Source: Dehalococcoidia bacterium
GTDB taxonomy: Bacteria > Chloroflexota > Dehalococcoidia > SM23-28-2 > DASRHH01
Direction of reading: 5' to 3'
DNA: 35,735 bases
Assembly (NCBI GenBank): GCA_035650635.1
Contig: DASRHH010000074.1
Location: forward strand, 1-35,735
Part shown: positions 22,327-33,528 of the stretch, piece after piece
Numbering within the stretch: position 1 is the stretch's first letter
Layout of the letters: each line of letters begins with the position of its first letter
Position numbers and translations under genes: made by a program
The notes under the pieces: model-generated
What the model was told of the DNA's origin: nothing
Database searches by the model: none
Seen by the model: the letters and a program-made list of their open reading frames with translations, nothing else

Positions 22327-22575
22327 TCAGCCTCGCCTCTCCGAACCTACCGCCTTTGATCGATCTGCGAGCCCGGCCGCTTCGTTACGCGCTGGCCACG
22401 ATCCTCTCCCTTGTCTTCGTCCAGTCGAGGCTCTTCGCAGTCCCTCGCGATCGGCCTGTCTTCGAAGCTGGTTCGACGCTCGAGGGTCGTCCCTGGCGAT
22501 CGGCCGGTCGGCGACGGCCTTTCGCCGTTCGCTCTCGTCTGTCATCTCTTCATCTTGTCTCCGGACAGTCATCAT
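22327..22575 (-). CDS. Small highly charged hypothetical protein, N-terminus MMTVRRQDEE
   Basis: 82 aa, ending 3 nt before the zinc-ribbon start. The 5' end is part of a 33-nt block repeated at 22954..22986. Confidence 0.4.
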   Translation of the reverse strand: MMTVRRQDEEMTDESERRKAVADRPIARDDPRASNQLRRQADREGLRRASTGRRQGRGSWPARNEAAGLADRSKAVGSERRG

Positions 22576-22578
22576 TTC
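22546..22578 (-). repeat. 33-nt block (copy A) spanning the start codon and first 9 codons of a small ORF
   Basis: Identical at 29 of 33 positions to 22954..22986. Minus-strand core: GAAATGATNNNNGTCCGGAGACAAGATGARGAG. Confidence 0.7.
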
Positions 22579-22658
22579 TCCCTCTGGTGAGCCGATGGTT
22601 GGCCAGCCTCTTCAGCTTCGCCGGCCGTGCTGGTCTTAGAGCAAGGCGTGCTCGCCTA

Positions 22659-22833: not shown

Positions 22834-22983
22834 CTATCGAGCGATGGCGCCGACGGCAGCAGCGACCAAAACGTAGCCGAGCGAGATGCTCACCAATGAC
22901 CAGCCCAGTGCGCCCTTTAATCTCCTCATGCGGTGCTGCATGGCGACTTTGTGCTCCTCATCTTGTCTCCGGACGATAATCAT
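22834..22983 (-). CDS. 49-aa mini-protein MIIVRRQDEEHKVAMQHRMRRLKGALGWSLVSISLGYVLVAAAVGAIAR (C-terminal TM)
   Basis: Below the track cutoff; found manually. Shares the MxxVRRQDEE N-terminus and 33-nt block with 22327..22575. Confidence 0.35.
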   Translation of the reverse strand: MIIVRRQDEEHKVAMQHRMRRLKGALGWSLVSISLGYVLVAAAVGAIAR

Positions 22984-22986
22984 TTC
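22954..22986 (-). repeat. 33-nt block (copy B)
   Basis: See copy A. Confidence 0.7.
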
Positions 22987-23073
22987 TACGTTGGGACCGA
23001 TCGCTAGGCAGCCTCGACAGCTGCGCGGATGTTATCGGTCGCATCCTCTTGATCAAAAGCTATGCAATGGCGT

Positions 23074-25934: not shown

Positions 25935-26219
25935 TTCTCGCTGCCAACTAAGGGATGGAACCTTAGTTGCCCAAGAGCATCTATCTTCCTGAGCATGCTG
26001 GTAAGAAAGCGCCAGCCTGATAGGCAGAGGGGGTCAGTGAAGCACAAGTCTCTTGAGTTGAGGGTTGGTTGAGCACGAGCCTCCCGAGCCGCGAGCATCC
26101 TGGCCTCTTTGCAGCACGTTGTCCAGCGCATCGGTAGGACACAGCGTGGCGCCCGGATGGCGGAGCTCTTCCAAGATCACCCGGAGGCCAGCTCTGCCCA
26201 CATTGTCGGCTACTGCGCT

Positions 26220-27125: not shown

Positions 27126-27493
27126 TAGACCATCCTTTCCTTAGAAACGACTTGTGTTCCGCACATATTATCCGACAGCGCTGGGCATTACCACGCCAGG
27201 CGCGTCTATTTTGGCGTGGCCCTGTTCCACGTCCCTGGCGGCCGGCAGGAATAGAAGACGAACTCACTGGTGCCGTCCGCTTTTTCGCCTAGGAGAGAGA
27301 CAATTGCTTGCCGTGACCCAGGGAGCTTATTCACCCATTGGCGCACCAGCTCGTCGGAAACACTTTGGGTAGTGCCCTTTGATCTACCGGGGCGGGCGCA
27401 GGTGTGCAGCTGGCCTTTCTTGGTCGGCCAGGAAGAACGCCAACGCCGCAGTCGATATGGCTCCACTGGCAGATCGTCGGAACCGTTGTTGTT

Positions 27494-27538
27494 TGGAGCG
27501 GGCGATGGGATTCGAACCCACGGCCCTCTGCTTGGGAA
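27494..27538 (-). pseudogene. tRNA-Gly(CCC) 3' half only: anticodon loop, 3' anticodon stem, variable loop, T arm, acceptor 3' strand, U73 and encoded CCA
   Basis: The minus strand reads TTCCCAA GCAGA GGGCC GTGGG TTCGAAT CCCAT CGCCCGC T CCA. The acceptor end CGCCCGCTCCA is that of bacterial tRNA-Gly. Upstream sequence (AACCAGCGTTC) cannot form the 5' anticodon stem, D arm or acceptor strand. Confidence 0.7.
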
Positions 27539-27610
27539 GAACGCTGGTTGGCTAATTGCTAAGGCGCCAGATTCAAAAACAGCAGGCAAACTTCAGGGAA
27601 AACACAGGTT
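27528..27610 (+). repeat. Direct repeat R1 (about 83 nt)
   Basis: Aligns without gaps to 33428..33510, an offset of exactly 5900 nt. 51 of 70 positions are identical over 27541..27610, plus 10 of 15 in the preceding anticodon-arm-like segment. Shared blocks: GAACGCTGGTT, TGCTAA, AGATTCAA, GGCAAAC. Confidence 0.65.
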
Positions 27611-27647
27611 GACGAGAGCTTGCCCGGTGGCGCGCGAGAGACCTGCC

Positions 27648-27677
27648 CCACCATAAGCAATGGTGGTGTTTGCTTAT
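27648..27677. terminator. Two overlapping, mutually exclusive hairpins just past the dnaE2 stop
   Basis: Hairpin 1: CCACCAT-AAGCA-ATGGTGG (27648..27666), followed on the plus strand by TGTTTGCTT. Hairpin 2: ATAAGCAA-N9-TTGCTTAT (27653..27677). Confidence 0.3.
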
Positions 27678-27706
27678 CTAAGTAGTCCGACCGAAGAGTT
27701 GGTGGC

Positions 27707-30700
27707 CTACCCGAAGTTGTGCGCATGTGGAGCGACCGGCAGACTGCCGTTCAGCGCCCGGAAGTCCTCCGCTACGATGTTGATCGTGCCCTCTCGACGC
27801 TCCAACATCCCTCGCACGATGACGAACGGCTCGGTGCGGACCAACTGACGTTGCCGCTCATAGAGGCTGGCGCGCACCATCACGTTGGCCAGGCCAAACT
27901 CGTCCTCCATCACTAGAAAGACCATCCCCTTCGCCGTCATTGGCCGCTGACGACAGACTACCAGGCCCGCCAGTTCCAGGAATTTGCCGTCCTCCAGCGA
28001 ATGCAGCGCTGAGGTAGGTACGATGCCCTCGTGCAGGCGAGGTCGCAGGAAGGCCATAGGGTGCTGCAGGGACAACCCCAGGATGGAGTAATCGGCGGCC
28101 ATGCGGTCCCATTCGCTCATCGACGAGAGCGAGACCATGTCCTGCTCCGTGAGTAAGGGCAGCGCGAGCTGGCGTTGCCCGGCGTTGCGGCCTTCCGGTC
28201 GATAGACCAGCCCTAGCTGCCAGAGCAACTCTCGCCTCTCCAGTCCGAAGCCGTCGAAGGCTCCACAGCCGATCAGGTTCTCGATGGCTCCTCGCTTGAG
28301 GCGGGTGCGCTCCAGGAAGTCGAACAGCGAGCGAAAGGGGCCGCCCTCGTCGCGCCGCGTTTCGACCTCTTTCGCTGTACTCGGGCTCAAGCCTTTCACG
28401 TAGCGCAGGCCGATGCGCACCGCGCCATGCTCCATGGTGCAACTGGCATTGCTGCGGTTGATGTCCGGTGGCAATACCTCCACGCCGTGGCGCCGGCCGT
28501 CGTTCAGGAGGACGTGCGGGCCGTAGAACCCCATGGGCTGGGCGTTGAAGAGCGCGCAGAGGAACTCCGTGGGATAATACTGACGCAGCCAGGCGGTCTG
28601 GTAAGCGAGCAGCCCGAAGGCAGCGGCGTGGGCCTTAGGGAAGCCGAACTCCGCGAACCCGGATATCTTCTGGAAGGCACTCTCGGCGGCTTCCGGCGAG
28701 ACCCCGTTCTGCAGGCAGCCGTCCATGAACTCATCCTTCAGCCTGGAGATGGCTTCCTGGGAGCGCTTGCGACTCATGGCCCGGCGCAGGTTATCCGCCT
28801 GGCCGGTACTGAAGCCGGCCAGGGCCATCGCTACCTGCAGCACCTGGTCCTGGAAGAGGATGACGCCAAGTGTATCCTCCAGCACCGGCTCCAGGCTGGG
28901 GTGGTCGTAAGTAACTTCCTCCTTTCCCATGCGACGCCGGATGTAGGGGTTGACGGCACCACCGACGATGGGCCCCGGCCGGATGATCGCCACCTCCACC
29001 GTCAAGTCCTCCAGTGAGCGCGGCTTTACTCGCGGCAACGTCTGCATCTGAGCCCGCGACTCGATCTGGAAGACGCCCATCGTATCGGCATCGCAGATGG
29101 AGTCGTAGACCTGCTGGTCCTGGAAATCGATGCGGGAGAGGTCGACATGCCGGCCTTGGTGCCGCTCGATGAGGTCGAGGCAGTCGTCGACGGCGGAGAG
29201 CATGCCCAACGAGAGGAAGTCGATCTTGATCATGCGAGCGTCATCGACCGAGTCTTTGTCCCACTGGATGAGGTCGCGGCCCTCCATAGCGCTCTGCTCC
29301 AGCGGCACCAGCTCCACCAGCGGCTGTGTGCCGGAGATGACCATGCCGCCGACGTGCTGGCTGATGTGCCGGGGGAAGCCCGCAATCTGCTCCACCAGCT
29401 CCATCAGGTGCCGCCAGAGCGGAGCGTCCATCTTGTCCCGGTAGTGGGCCAGGCGCCTCATCTCCTCCCGCACGTGACGGGCGGAGGAATAGCCGTCGCT
29501 GACCTTGGCCAGGCGATCGAGTTCCGCCAGGGGCAGGCTCAGCGCCTTCCCCACCTCTCGCACAGCGCTGCGCAGCCGGTAGGTGGGGAAGGTAGCGACG
29601 AGCCCCACATTCTCCCGGCCAAAGTGCTCGTAGATGCGCAGGATCAGCTTCTCCCGGACGTCGCGCGGGAAATCGAGGTCGATGTCCGGCACCGATGCCA
29701 TCTCCTCATTGAGGAAGCGGCCCAGGAAGAGGTTGTTGGCCACGGGATCAATGTGCGATAGACCGATCAGGTAGCAGATGACGGACCCAACGGAAGAGCC
29801 GCGCCCCCGGCCCGGCGGCGCCAGGCATTCACGTCCACGCACTTCCCCTGCTACCTGATAGGCCAGGTTGAGGATCTCCCAGTGGATGAGGAAAAAGCCG
29901 GCCAATCCGTGATGAGCCACCAACCGCAGCTCTTCCTCCAGCCTCTCCTGCGCTTGCAGTGGCCGCTGGTAGCGGCGCTCTAGCTCCCGCCGGCAGAGCT
30001 TGCGCAGGTAAGAGTCCGCCGTCTCGCCGGGCGGCACCGGGTAGTCCGGGAAGCGATAGTCCAGGTCCTTCGTGAGGTCGAACCGGCAGCGCTCGGCGAT
30101 GCGCAGGCTGTTGGCGATGGCCTGCGGGTGATCTCGGAAGAGCTCCGCCATCTCAGCGGGCGGCCGCAGGAAGTACTCCGAGTTCTCGCGGCGTAGGTAG
30201 TGGCTGGCGTCCAGCGTGCTGCGGTTCTTGATGACGACCAGCACGTCCTGCAGGCGGTGCCGCTCTCGCGTATGGTAATGGACATTGCCCGTCGCTACGG
30301 TGCCAACACCCAAGCGCCGCGCCAGTTCCGCCAGTGCTTGATTGCGGCGGACGTCTCCATAGACCAGGTTGTTCTGCAGCTCCAGGAAGAAGCTGCCGGC
30401 GCCAAACCAGTCGCGGTAGCGGCGGGCGGCCGCCTCCGCTTCCGGGTAGCGCTCCTGTGCCAGCAGCGCTGGCACCTCCCCGCGCCGGCAGCCGGACAGT
30501 GCGATGAGCCCTTCCGTTTGGCGGGCCAGCACCTCCAGATCGATACAGGGGCTGCCGCGCTCGTGGTCCAGGTGGGCGTGAGTGAGCAGGCGGCAGAGGT
30601 TAGCGTAGCCGCGCTGAGTCTCGCAGAGCAGCGTCAGGTGGTGGCCGTTGGCCAGCGTGACCTCGGCGCCGGTGATCGGCTTGAGGTCCCAGGCACGGGC

Positions 30701-30865
30701 GGCCTGCGCGAACTCCATCGCCCCGTGCAGGCCGTCGTGGTCGGTCAGCGCCAGTGACTCGTATCCCTGAGCCTTCGCTCGCAACACCATCTCCTCGACG
30801 TGCGAGGCGCCCTCCAGGAAAGAAAAGCTGGAATGGGCGTGCAGCTCGGCGTAGGGAGCAGGCAT
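27707..30865 (-). CDS. dnaE2: Error-prone DNA polymerase III alpha-subunit paralog
   Basis: 1052 aa. N-terminal PHP domain YAELHAHSSFSFLEGAS...LALTDHDGLHG. The length and the adjacent imuB-like gene fit DnaE2 rather than replicative DnaE. Confidence 0.9.
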   Translation of the reverse strand: MPAPYAELHAHSSFSFLEGASHVEEMVLRAKAQGYESLALTDHDGLHGAMEFAQAARAWDLKPITGAEVTLANGHHLTLLCETQRGYANLCRLLTHAHLDHERGSPCIDLEVLARQTEGLIALSGCRRGEVPALLAQERYPEAEAAARRYRDWFGAGSFFLELQNNLVYGDVRRNQALAELARRLGVGTVATGNVHYHTRERHRLQDVLVVIKNRSTLDASHYLRRENSEYFLRPPAEMAELFRDHPQAIANSLRIAERCRFDLTKDLDYRFPDYPVPPGETADSYLRKLCRRELERRYQRPLQAQERLEEELRLVAHHGLAGFFLIHWEILNLAYQVAGEVRGRECLAPPGRGRGSSVGSVICYLIGLSHIDPVANNLFLGRFLNEEMASVPDIDLDFPRDVREKLILRIYEHFGRENVGLVATFPTYRLRSAVREVGKALSLPLAELDRLAKVSDGYSSARHVREEMRRLAHYRDKMDAPLWRHLMELVEQIAGFPRHISQHVGGMVISGTQPLVELVPLEQSAMEGRDLIQWDKDSVDDARMIKIDFLSLGMLSAVDDCLDLIERHQGRHVDLSRIDFQDQQVYDSICDADTMGVFQIESRAQMQTLPRVKPRSLEDLTVEVAIIRPGPIVGGAVNPYIRRRMGKEEVTYDHPSLEPVLEDTLGVILFQDQVLQVAMALAGFSTGQADNLRRAMSRKRSQEAISRLKDEFMDGCLQNGVSPEAAESAFQKISGFAEFGFPKAHAAAFGLLAYQTAWLRQYYPTEFLCALFNAQPMGFYGPHVLLNDGRRHGVEVLPPDINRSNASCTMEHGAVRIGLRYVKGLSPSTAKEVETRRDEGGPFRSLFDFLERTRLKRGAIENLIGCGAFDGFGLERRELLWQLGLVYRPEGRNAGQRQLALPLLTEQDMVSLSSMSEWDRMAADYSILGLSLQHPMAFLRPRLHEGIVPTSALHSLEDGKFLELAGLVVCRQRPMTAKGMVFLVMEDEFGLANVMVRASLYERQRQLVRTEPFVIVRGMLERREGTINIVAEDFRALNGSLPVAPHAHNFG

Positions 30866-31149
30866 CAGGGTCTACCCGATCGCGCCGGCGCCCAGTAATC
30901 CTGGGCTGCCCAGCCAACTGCGTCCCGATACACCGTCAGCGTCCGTCCGTCCTCCAGCAGCAGGCTGAAGTAGGTGCGGCTGACCGGCTGCGGGCGCCAC
31001 CACTCATCGTCGATGCGCCAGGTTTCCAGCACGGCCTGCACCTCGCGGCGGCCGGCGAGCCGGACGGCGATCGGCTTGCCCTCAGCGTCCTCTTCCACCT
31101 GCAGTGGGCGCGGGCGGTTCAAAGCGATTGTACGGTGCCGCCTAACCAT
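30865..31149 (-). CDS. 94-aa protein translationally coupled to dnaE2; resembles the C-terminal WW-motif region of ImuB-type proteins
   Basis: Its stop TGA overlaps the dnaE2 ATG (TGATG). Contains AVLETWRIDDEWWRPQPVSRTYFSLLLEDGRTLTVYRD. Confidence 0.55.
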   Translation of the reverse strand: MVRRHRTIALNRPRPLQVEEDAEGKPIAVRLAGRREVQAVLETWRIDDEWWRPQPVSRTYFSLLLEDGRTLTVYRDAVGWAAQDYWAPARSGRP

Positions 31150-31189
31150 ATATGATTCTCAACAAAAGGAGTTTCAAAGGAGCGCTGGA

Positions 31190-31480
31190 ATGGCAATCGT
31201 CATGTTTATGGAGTGGGATGTCACACCGGATCAATACGAGGCGGCTAGGAAGCTGGTTAACTGGGAGGGCCAAGTGCCTGCGGGTGCGATATTCCATGTC
31301 GCTGCTTTCAATCAGCGGGGACTGCGGGTTACCGATCTCTGGGAATCGGAAGAGGACATGCAGGCGTTCGTCAACACACGATTGATGCCGGGGGTCCGCC
31401 AGTTGGGCATCCAGTCCAATCCGCATGTAGAGGTTTTGCCTACACATGCTATCTTTACGCCTGCTTTCAAGCCTGCCTGA
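31190..31480 (+). CDS. Small ABM / dimeric alpha-beta-barrel-like protein (tentative)
   Basis: Start MAIVMFMEWDV with an AAGGAG SD 9 nt upstream. The track ORF 30974..31480 has an implausible N-terminal extension antisense to the 94-aa gene. Confidence 0.5.
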   Translation: MAIVMFMEWDVTPDQYEAARKLVNWEGQVPAGAIFHVAAFNQRGLRVTDLWESEEDMQAFVNTRLMPGVRQLGIQSNPHVEVLPTHAIFTPAFKPA

Positions 31481-32650
31481 TTAAGGCTCGAACTCGACCA
31501 GGGCCGCTCTGCGCTCGGGAATCCGCGACCACGGCTCCACCTCCACAATCTTCCCCAGGGGCACGTAGCCCTGCTTGGCGTGCAGTTGTCGCACAGTCTC
31601 GTCTATCTGTCGCCACAGCTTGCCCTTGCTCTCGAACATGCCGGCCTGCCTGCCAGACTCGGCGCTCAGACCTACCAGTTCTACCTCCAGCTCCTCCACC
31701 GGCCGCTGCGGCGGATGCCGGACGATGGCGCTCTTTACTGCGAACCAGGCATGGGCGGGGTCGGAGAGCGCCTCCCGGAAGGAGACCGGCAGCTCCCAGG
31801 AGCCACCGCCGTCCAGGAGGCCGCGCGCCACTACCTTGCGCACCCAGCGGCCACGCCTGTCCGGGCTCCCGTAAGCGCTGTAGAGCAGGCGCTCCAGGCC
31901 GGCGAGTATGGGGTCGATGGACACTGCCGCGGCCGGCAGTTGCAGCCGGCGCACGATGCTCTCCTCCTGCAGCCTTGGCAGCAGCGGCTCGCTATCGATG
32001 CCCTGCGCCAGCTCCCAGCAGCGCTTGCCCTCGGTCCCGAACTGCTGCTGGTAGGCGCCCAGTGGCAGCGTCGCTATCTCTCCCAGGGTGCGCAATCCCA
32101 GCAGCTCCAGCCGCCAGCGAACCGGTTCATCGATGGGGAGGAGATCTACAGGCAACGGCGCCAGGAAGCCGGCGTCTTGCCCCGCCTGCACCAGCTTCGC
32201 CAGGCCGGGGCGAGAGGTCTGCGCCGCGACGCGGGCGGTGAACTTGCCTTTCGCGATGCCTGCCGTCGCCATCAGCCCGAAGCGCTTGTGCAGTCCGGAG
32301 ATCAGGCGATCCGCCAGCTCCTGCGGCTCAGCCGCCAGGCCCTTCAGCGAGAGATAGGCCAGCCCGAGGCCCGCCGGTTCCAGCTCCGGGCTGAACCCTT
32401 CCAGGAAGTTCATCACCTCTTCGAAGCGGCACTGGTAATAGGACAGGTCCGGTGGCAGCACCTCCGCGCGATGACAGAGGCCAATCGCTTCCGACATGCG
32501 CATGCCGCGCCTGACGCCGGAGGCCTCAGCGCCGAGAGAGCAATCGAAGACTGTTGCTTCGCCGATTAAAATAAGAGATGTGGCTGAACTCTGCCGGCGT
32601 TGGCGCTCGACTTCGACAGAGAAACGGGGGATAGCGATGCAAGTAAGCAT
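31481..32650 (-). CDS. imuB: Y-family polymerase homolog lacking the catalytic acidic residues (ImuB-like)
   Basis: The N-terminus CIAIPRFSVEVE replaces the canonical D-x-D-x-F-(F/Y)-ASVE motif of DinB-type enzymes. 389 aa. Lies upstream of dnaE2. Confidence 0.75.
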   Translation of the reverse strand: MLTCIAIPRFSVEVERQRRQSSATSLILIGEATVFDCSLGAEASGVRRGMRMSEAIGLCHRAEVLPPDLSYYQCRFEEVMNFLEGFSPELEPAGLGLAYLSLKGLAAEPQELADRLISGLHKRFGLMATAGIAKGKFTARVAAQTSRPGLAKLVQAGQDAGFLAPLPVDLLPIDEPVRWRLELLGLRTLGEIATLPLGAYQQQFGTEGKRCWELAQGIDSEPLLPRLQEESIVRRLQLPAAAVSIDPILAGLERLLYSAYGSPDRRGRWVRKVVARGLLDGGGSWELPVSFREALSDPAHAWFAVKSAIVRHPPQRPVEELEVELVGLSAESGRQAGMFESKGKLWRQIDETVRQLHAKQGYVPLGKIVEVEPWSRIPERRAALVEFEP

Positions 32651-32666
32651 AGCTGGCCCTTACAAC

Positions 32667-32694
32667 TTTATAGAACACTCGTTCTACTTGTCAA
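32667..32694 (-). promoter_or_regulatory. Near-consensus promoter for the imuB-like gene: TTGACA, 16 nt, TATAAA
   Basis: The minus strand reads TTGACA AGTAGAACGAGTGTTC TATAAA. The ATG is 16 nt after the -10, giving a very short leader. Confidence 0.5.
32672..32685. promoter_or_regulatory. LexA (Cheo-type SOS) box AGAAC-ACTC-GTTCT
   Basis: Perfect palindrome matching the GAAC-N4-GTTC consensus. It sits inside the imuB promoter spacer/-10 and 26 nt upstream of the udgX-like ATG. Confidence 0.6.
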
Positions 32695-32710
32695 TCCTCC
32701 GGTGGCTGTG

Positions 32711-33358
32711 ATGAGGGCTCTCACGTTGGAGGAGATGATGGCGGGTGAAGCTGCCGAGTTGCTGCCGCCCAAGCCATCGCTGAAGAGCTTGCGCGAAGCC
32801 GCGGCAGACTGCAAAGCCTGCCCCCTTTGGGAGCTAGGTACTCAAACGGTCTTCGGCGAAGGCGAGCGCACCGCCAGACTGGTGCTCATCGGCGAGCAGC
32901 CCGGCGATGCAGAAGATGTGGCCGGCAAGCCTTTCGTTGGCCCTGCGGGAAGATTGCTGGACGAAGCTCTAGAACGGGCCGGCCTCGACCGGCACTTCGC
33001 CTACGTCACTAACGTTGTCAAGCATTTCAAGTGGGAGCCGCGCGGTAAGCGACGCATTCATAAGAAGCCCAACGAGAGGGAGATCACCGCTTGCCGCCCC
33101 TGGCTGGCTGCTGAGCTCAGCGTCCTGGAGCCGGAAGTCATCGTCTGCCTGGGCGCTACCGCTTCGCAGGCGCTGCTGGGCCGCGACTTCAGGGTGAGTC
33201 TTCAACGGGGTATCGTCATGCCGTCGGACCTGGCGCGGCACATCATGGCCACGGTGCACCCATCCTCTATCCTCCGCGCCGATGACCGCGAGCACGAGAT
33301 GCAAGCCTTCGTGGCCGATCTGGAAAAGGTCAGCCCGTTGCTGGCAGCCTATCAATAA
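32711..33358 (+). CDS. udgX: Family 4 uracil-DNA glycosylase of the UdgX type
   Basis: GEQPG motif A, HPSS motif B, Fe-S cysteines (CKACPLW, ITACRPW) and the UdgX-specific insertion KHFKWEPRGKRRIHKKP containing KRRIH. Start at MRALTLEE; the track start at 32600 is unlikely. Confidence 0.85.
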   Translation: MRALTLEEMMAGEAAELLPPKPSLKSLREAAADCKACPLWELGTQTVFGEGERTARLVLIGEQPGDAEDVAGKPFVGPAGRLLDEALERAGLDRHFAYVTNVVKHFKWEPRGKRRIHKKPNEREITACRPWLAAELSVLEPEVIVCLGATASQALLGRDFRVSLQRGIVMPSDLARHIMATVHPSSILRADDREHEMQAFVADLEKVSPLLAAYQ

Positions 33359-33402
33359 CTTCGCCGTCCGGCTCCCGATAATAATTCTACCGCTCGTTTC
33401 CT

Positions 33403-33438
33403 CGGCTGCACAGGGTTGGTAGAGCACCTGCCTCGGGA
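33403..33438 (+). pseudogene. Degenerate tRNA-Pro(CGG)-like 5' fragment (D arm, 5' anticodon stem and loop only)
   Basis: Reads ...GGTTGGTAGAGC A CCTGC CTCGGGA, then continues GAACGCTGG (repeat R2) instead of the 3' stem GCAGG. The acceptor and D-stem region is imperfect, and no T arm follows. Confidence 0.4.
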
Positions 33439-33510
33439 GAACGCTGGTTACCCAAATGCTAACAGGTTAGATTCAAGAGCAGCGGGCAAACCTCAAGAAA
33501 AACGCAGACA
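33428..33510 (+). repeat. Direct repeat R2 (about 83 nt)
   Basis: See R1. Confidence 0.65.
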
Positions 33511-33528
33511 ATCGGCTTCTGTCGACTC

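Follow-up and report, generated by a model that had tools for sequence, protein, structure and literature searches.

The 35,735-nt stretch of DNA analyzed here (the window; contig DASRHH010000074.1 of a Dehalococcoidia bacterium, phylum Chloroflexota) carries an SOS mutagenesis operon located between two copies of a direct repeat, R, termed R1 (left copy) and R2 (right copy). The favored interpretation, held with a rough probability of 55%, is that R is a ~90-bp attachment-site arm of integrative elements specific for the anticodon loop of tRNA-Gly(CCC), that R1 and R2 are junctions of such elements, and that the SOS operon lies within an array of integration scars. The appearance of the junctions is that expected of site-specific recombination within tRNA anticodon loops, as supported by the recurrence of the same junction on three unrelated contigs and by agreement with known phage attP cores. 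The initial annotation had gone further and proposed that the bracketed 5.9 kb was mobilized or rearranged as a cassette through such sites; mobilization as a unit is unsupported, because integration scars such as the R copies are well known and do not demonstrate that the SOS operon moves as a whole. What bounds the interval is a pair of "left ends" with equal polarity rather than the left and the right end of a single element. If the favored interpretation holds, R represents a new family of att arms, belonging to integrative elements of uncultured Chloroflexota that target tRNA-Gly(CCC), and an SOS mutagenesis operon resides within integration-scar territory, which bears on the spread of dnaE2 cassettes. 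The point is a modest one because tRNA-linked scars are common, and would become weightier only with excision of the cassette shown.

R1 and R2 align without gaps over 80 nt (27528-27607 and 33428-33507) at 76% identity and are spaced 5900 nt from start to start, the round figure being without meaning. Over the 83 nt for which about 73% identity was initially reported, 61 of 83 positions are identical. Identity falls to background within 10 nt outside both repeat borders, giving the repeat sharp edges. Furthermore, R1/R2 forms the top diagonal of the whole window with a score of 42 (+1/-1 scoring), compared to 17-21 in 12 dinucleotide shuffles. Chance similarity, the objection that the initial annotation had raised against itself, is thereby ruled out. 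The two copies differ at 24% of positions. The locus is present in three assemblies with the same filled arrangement in each; R2 is identical in three independent assemblies, and the left-flank gene is found only on the source contig. Contig-wide results given below refer to the 41.4-kb ENA contig k141_844407 (ERZ27279688), which contains the window and of which 10.2 kb remain right of R1; by the source names of its proteins, this contig belongs to a Dehalococcoidia metagenome-assembled genome.

Both repeats abut tRNA sequence. The 3' half of a tRNA-Gly(CCC) gene left of R1, already recognized in the initial annotation, proved solid: the Rfam tRNA model gives a 5'-truncated match at 27497-27540 (model positions 29-71, 18.5 bits, E 0.039), and in blastn searches against phages and plasmids only positions 27480-27541 of the window were matched, the targets being tRNA-Gly genes and unannotated phage sites or attP cores. 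The half at 27494-27538 is read as a displaced tRNA gene (tDNA) fragment. The piece left of R2, here called X, is probably tRNA-derived, judging by its sequence. It reads GCAC-AGGGTTGGTA-GAGC-A-CCTGC-CTCGGGA, in which a D arm, the anticodon stem and a CGG-containing loop follow one another in tRNA register, and it gives short blastn matches (E ~1-3) to the 5' halves of tRNA-Pro, tRNA-Thr and tRNA-Ala genes, of which the tRNA-Pro matches reach furthest into the loop. The junctions are TCTGC-TTGGGAA-GAACG at R1 and CCTGC-CTCGGGA-GAACG at R2. Because both consist of a 5-nt stem and a 7-nt loop followed by GAACGCTGG, the two breakpoints are structurally equivalent, and the earlier claim of equivalent breakpoints in anticodon-loop-like sequence is borne out. 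In addition, the R2-side arm matches the reverse-complemented Gly anticodon arm at 12 of 17 positions.

Two other explanations of the tRNA pieces were rejected. For a split or permuted tRNA, the complementary acceptor strand is absent (a GCGGGCG acceptor partner was not found) and the halves stem from different isoacceptors; for a tRNA intron or tmRNA, no group I or tmRNA match extends beyond the T arm and the piece beside R2 has no acceptor stem. Another tRNA-like piece with a D arm and anticodon stem, AGGGTTGGTTGAGCACGAGCCTC, the third in the window, is located at 26061-26083 within a 680-nt gene-free stretch. It matches X at 20 of 23 positions, and the sequence after it, CTCCCGA, is the R2-side loop in reverse complement. 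It scores 31, compared to 23 for the best of 500 shuffles, which is of borderline significance given that the whole window was searched.

R is found in other genomes. A metagenome scan with the pattern AGAACGCTGGTT-N17-21-AGATTCAA returned the window's own R2 from a Joint Genome Institute (JGI) sample, one chance match and three true copies on other metagenome contigs (L014, L015 and L016). On these three contigs, R is likewise fused to a tRNA-Gly(CCC) 3' half in reverse complement, and the point of fusion is identical to the nucleotide. The tRNA-Gly half of L014 is matched with 22 bits (E 0.004), the same junction is seen by alignment in L015 and L016, and the half of L016 is partly decayed; none of the three contigs holds a complete tRNA. 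The flanks of R differ on both sides among the three contigs and from those in the window, with a GNAT gene and a DsrC-like gene as neighbors in L014, a MarR-like gene in L015, and an RDD protein, an 1823-amino-acid (aa) protein and a two-component system in L016. No dnaE2 or other SOS gene lies near the R copies of other genomes, and R is thus not specific to the SOS cassette. An exact-pattern scan of a genome collection with AGATTCAANANCAGCNGGCAAAC gave three chance matches only. R is not a dispersed repeat, the outcome under which its relation to the borders would have been void: it is rare (two copies on the contig, zero across 234 kb of loci from relatives) and is always located at a tRNA loop.

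The internal organization of R resembles that of an integrase arm. R1 is composed of the AGAACGCTGGTT block, which does not vary among the five copies, an imperfect hairpin (27544-27570), AGATTCAA, and two to three spaced repeats ending in AAAC (27585-27613). Within the 40 nt nearest the loop, which include AGAACGCTGGTT, AGATTCAA and the hairpin between them, R1 shares 85-92% identity with L014-L016 and 74% with R2, and across genomes the core-proximal 40 nt are 85-98% conserved. The distal 36 nt show 69% identity between R1 and R2 and ~47-50% with L014-L016. The spaced AAAC repeats are, as judged by eye, present in all copies and lineage specific: CAGGCAAAC / GGGAAAAC in the window and GGGGTGAAAC / GGGGTGAAAAC / GGGTGAAAT in L014-L016. 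From this combination of a conserved core-proximal module with lineage-specific, repeated distal sites, we infer the appearance of an integrase arm, in which the AAAC repeats may be putative arm-type binding sites.

Known tRNA-associated integration systems provide a close precedent for R1. In the Islander collection, islands are delimited by a regenerated tDNA at one end and a displaced fragment at the other; 2083 of 3919 tDNA islands have anticodon-centered att sites, 159 have 5' fragments and 125 form tandem arrays (PMC4383910). As in the class A islands of this collection, for which tandem arrays and rare 5'-fragment cases are known, the R1 junction consists of a loop-cut tRNA fragment that runs to the 3' end and abuts foreign DNA, marking an island end. 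Such a loop-to-3'-end fragment abutting non-tRNA DNA is present at 27494-27538, in L014 and, by alignment, in L015 and L016. The arrangement differs from class A in that the 41 kb hold no regenerated tRNA or integrase, in that the second junction involves a different and oppositely oriented tRNA-like piece, and in that the repeated sequence is the arm and not the tRNA core alone. The core boundary is also that of characterized tRNA-Gly att sites. In Mycobacterium phage Journey13 and Propionibacterium phage Anatole, the attP core is an unannotated tRNA-Gly 3' half, and homology with the window stops at the same loop position, at AGCTTGG(G)AA. As in R, direct repeats are present in the arm that adjoins each phage core, clearly so in Anatole. 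The hosts of both phages are Actinobacteria, whereas the host phylum of R is Chloroflexota.

In the proposed mechanism, a tyrosine recombinase would cross over in the anticodon loop of tRNA-Gly(CCC). R1 would be the canonical fragment-side junction, at which the loop-cut 3' half of the host tRNA-Gly abuts the arm of the element, and because R1 would be the fragment-side junction, the DNA to its right, including the SOS operon, would belong to the island. R2 would be a second junction of the same polarity 5.9 kb further on, with its arm abutting the tRNA-Pro(CGG)-like remnant in the opposite orientation; given the look-alike arm (12/17), this suggests a secondary or retargeted site. The use of secondary attB sites and of short cores that do not reconstitute the tRNA is documented for phage Fionnbharth (PMC10865867). 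The present case is similar in its short tRNA-loop core, in a junction at which the tRNA is not rebuilt and in the suggested use of a look-alike secondary site. It differs from Fionnbharth in lacking an element-borne replacement tRNA, and the R1 junction retains the full 45-nt 3' half, as in canonical systems. Most likely, the SOS operon would be cargo at the edge of the island next to the arm, the integrase end being lost or beyond the contig. The interval could belong to a tandem array as one of its units, form the margin of a larger island into which another insertion is nested, or be resident DNA surrounded by old scars; these three options are not separable, because the far end lies off the contig and close relatives are absent.

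Several negative results weigh against the attachment-site interpretation, and the absence of an integrase beside R in every copy is its chief weakness. The open reading frames (ORFs) and called genes of the 41-kb contig include no integrase, transposase, phage or conjugation gene and no Phage_integrase domain, in line with the earlier statement that the interval itself is integrase-free. No integrase occurs to the right of R in L015 and L016 either, and the far end of an R element was not found in any copy. In Journey13 and Anatole, the tyrosine integrase gene starts ~150 nt from the core, on the side that R occupies here, and the phage arms share no sequence similarity with R. Because the phage integrase sits on the R side, the R family would either have the opposite layout or be represented by integrase-less relics in all copies seen. 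Furthermore, ARAGORN detected no intact tRNA in the window or on the rest of the 41-kb contig, tRNA-Gly and tRNA-Pro included. X has no Rfam tRNA match and its tRNA-Pro identity falls below threshold, so that of the tRNA-Pro(CGG)-like 5' portion described initially the register of the D and anticodon arms and weak blastn matches stand, whereas an acceptor stem and an Rfam match are lacking. Finally, exact-pattern scans of IMG/VR for R yielded nothing or chance matches in coding regions, and blastn against phage and plasmid collections matched only the tRNA part and not R itself; a phage or plasmid origin of R was rejected on these results.

The alternative that survives best, although unlikely, takes the 5.9-kb segment from R1 to X as a self-contained, integrase-less cis-mobilizable unit, arranged in tandem with another element beginning at R2. 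X would then be the P' arm, and a cognate integrase acting in trans could excise the segment through exchange between the cores in the two loops. In formal terms, the order core-R1-cargo-X-core-R2 is that of a tandem array, both homology borders lie exactly at the loop, and the segment is without recombination genes. There are precedents for such an arrangement: the CIMEs of ICESt1/St3 are integrase-less cis-mobilizable elements that undergo tandem accretion, and tandem integration is reported for SGI1. The locus resembles these in having a segment without recombination genes between direct att-type sites beside another element, but its excision, a helper element and a proper attL/attR pair would all be hypothetical. 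The GC content at third codon positions (GC3) of dnaE2, the 94-aa ORF (orf94) and imuB (0.80-0.84) also exceeds that of the genes directly flanking the interval (0.65-0.77), the context of imuB-dnaE2 differs in every relative and at times includes insertion sequence (IS) or phage-like genes, and a second X-like piece exists at 26061-26083.

Against a tandem unit, however, stand the three assemblies that hold the locus, all of which are filled with the cores in direct orientation and none of which provides an empty-site, excised or deletion variant. An empty site was not found through homologs either, the closest ImuB and UdgX relatives being ~70-75% identical and in unrelated contexts. The high GC3 is matched by the epimerase and DegT genes elsewhere in the window, and the 24% divergence between R1 and R2 implies that any such event is old. 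X is not attached to R in the other matches of the metagenome scan. Further points against the cassette as a unit are the R copies of other genomes, which occur without any dnaE2, the identity of R1 and R2 as one and the same arm in the same polarity, and the relatives. The imuB-(small ORFs)-dnaE2 order occurs at seven distinct relatives' loci (ImuB 68-71% identical) with different neighbors each time, in some cases IS or phage-like genes, and no tRNA or R match is found at any of these loci. A bolder version, in which the LexA-controlled 5.9-kb imuB-dnaE2-udgX block is a non-autonomous unit moved in trans by a recombinase that recognizes anticodon stem-loops by their structure and accepts tRNA-Gly one way and tRNA-Pro the other, is improbable; if true, a complete error-prone repair module could hop between tRNA genes.

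It is very unlikely that R is the end of another kind of small or non-autonomous element, such as one moved by an HUH (IS200-IS605-like) single-strand transposase. An element of this kind would read the anticodon stem-loop, whichever way it faces, as a hairpin in DNA and would use its own subterminal hairpin to insert immediately 3' of the loop. This would account for the cutting of both stem-loops at the same structural position despite opposite tRNA directions and for the absence of an integrase near every copy. An imperfect hairpin is indeed located 5 nt from the left end of R (27544-27570 and 33444-33470). On the plus strand, its pairing in the five copies amounts to 92%, including G.U pairs (G.T in DNA, on the plus strand only) and one compensatory change, but the pairing is equaled by 37/500 and 95/500 shuffles and the statistics are underpowered. 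The location of four of the five copies in tRNA-Gly(CCC) points to sequence specificity, and a simple insertion is excluded because the second half of the tRNA is missing after R. Moreover, tnpA/tnpB, a right-end hairpin and dispersed copies were not found.

The least probable of these alternatives makes R a regulatory sequence or small RNA of the SOS operon, either as a weak LexA site (AGAACGCTGGTT) or as a plus-strand RNA ending at the terminator-like hairpin that follows R1. The AGAACGCTGGTT block is invariant in all five copies and resembles true boxes of relatives such as GAACGCGTGTTC, and the hairpin has plus-strand wobble pairs; the box, however, always lacks the final C (GTTG or GTTA), one-mismatch Cheo matches occur at chance level (17 found, 11 expected), the true box of the operon lies at 32673-32684, R copies elsewhere are not beside SOS genes, and no terminator-like site follows R2. 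The terminator-like hairpin behind R1 lies between R1 and the dnaE2 stop codon in an orientation that is wrong for termination of dnaE2. The Cheo-like start of the repeats and the hint of a plus-strand RNA structure, both offered as weak observations in the initial annotation, fall with these results. The G-C to G.U changes exist but are not evidence. RNAalifold on the five copies gave unfavorable covariation terms and no conserved fold on either strand, and Rfam matched R to no family at gathering or relaxed thresholds.

The remaining identities of R were dismissed: a protein-coding repeat (the open shared frame has 13/27 identical residues, 48%, against 76% at the nucleotide level, without third-position bias or a Pfam match), a group I intron, tmRNA or other known RNA family (no Rfam match), and an integron attC site (the core motifs misfit and the genes face both directions).

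The features of the interval and its borders are collected in Table 1. Between the repeats lies an imuB-DUF6504-dnaE2 operon of the type usual in Chloroflexi, together with udgX, behind a LexA box. Of the gene content listed initially, dnaE2, the 94-aa ORF, imuB and udgX are confirmed by Pfam or homology, whereas the label "ABM-like" has no Pfam support.

Table 1. Features at and between the two R junctions (window coordinates)
Feature	Position	Strand	Basis
tRNA-Gly(CCC) 3' half, anticodon loop to encoded CCA, without 5' half	27494..27538	-	Rfam, blastn
R1, candidate attachment-site arm	27539..27615	+	Repeat search; 5-copy nhmmer profile, E 6e-23
Terminator-like hairpin and T-run	27648..27676	+	Consensus scan
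dnaE2, error-prone Pol III alpha, full length (1052 aa)	27707..30865	-	Pfam PHP, DNA_pol3_alpha, finger, HHH_6, OB
Conserved DUF6504-like cassette protein (94 aa), with translational coupling to dnaE2	30865..31149	-	Homology to L032 ORF
imuB-like Y-family polymerase	31481..32650	-	Pfam IMS
Perfect Cheo-type LexA box GAACACTCGTTC in divergent imuB/udgX promoter region	32673..32684		Motif scan
udgX-family uracil-DNA binding protein	32738..33358	+	Pfam UDG; NCBI name UdgX family
X, tRNA-Pro(CGG)-like piece: D arm, anticodon stem CCTGC, loop CTCGGGA; without acceptor stem or 3' half	33408..33438	+	tRNA register by eye, blastn
R2, second, more diverged copy in the same orientation as R1	33439..33514	+	Repeat search; nhmmer, E 1.5e-19

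The size of DnaE2 is within the range of its relatives (1050-1150 aa). The 94-aa protein is 59% identical to the 95-aa ORF at the same position of the relatives' locus L032, which matches DUF6504 weakly, and a further, unassigned ORF of 96-101 aa lies between imuB and dnaE2. A homolog search with ImuB gave 911 matches, named ImuB or Y-family polymerase by their sources. The operon is similar to the imuA-imuB-dnaE2 cassette in combining a LexA box, the Y-family ImuB and DnaE2. It differs in having no recognizable imuA, the place of which is taken by the DUF6504-like 94-aa protein as in other Chloroflexi, and in having udgX attached divergently to the same LexA box; the gap between imuB and dnaE2 holds only the 94-aa and 96-101-aa ORFs, neither of which matches the RecA fold of ImuA. 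The LexA box is the sole zero-mismatch GAAC-N4-GTTC of the window, and relatives have equivalent perfect boxes ~40 nt upstream of imuB. In relatives, the interior of the imuB-dnaE2 cassette is an insertion hotspot: at L019, L021, L030 and L034 the operon is broken by varying inserts, among them a methyltransferase gene, SnoaL, a gene with a metallo-beta-lactamase fold, and toxin-antitoxin pairs of the PIN-MazE type. At 26156-26190, just downstream of an aldo-keto reductase gene and 1.3 kb left of R1, lies an orphan inverted piece of dnaE2 that is complementary at 33 of 35 positions to dnaE2-internal 30118-30152 (aa ~237-249); it could be a relic of rearrangement, or a site of pairing between the 3' untranslated region of the reductase and the dnaE2 mRNA.

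Because divergent imuB and udgX have one LexA box in common, UdgX appears to be SOS-controlled together with the mutasome. The pairing of udgX with imuB is absent from the seven relatives' cassettes examined. Among 120 listed homologs of UdgX, the closest are 67-75% identical, and the three closest with an examined context (L027-L029, 71-72%) are found in an unrelated setting, beside tRNA-Cys and rsgA. Another close UdgX homolog is named Gaiellaceae (Actinobacteria) by its source, which hints at a cross-phylum transfer of udgX.

Further repeats were noted away from the SOS interval. A 34-nt direct repeat (22546-22579 and 22954-22987) is 88% identical with a spacing of 408 nt, and the same region contains a 43-nt repeat with a spacing of 49 nt (22440-22531). 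Beyond the right end of the window (L012, ~135-174), the 20-mer TTCTAACTAGCGATATGGCG is perfectly duplicated in tandem upstream of small ORFs near the contig end.

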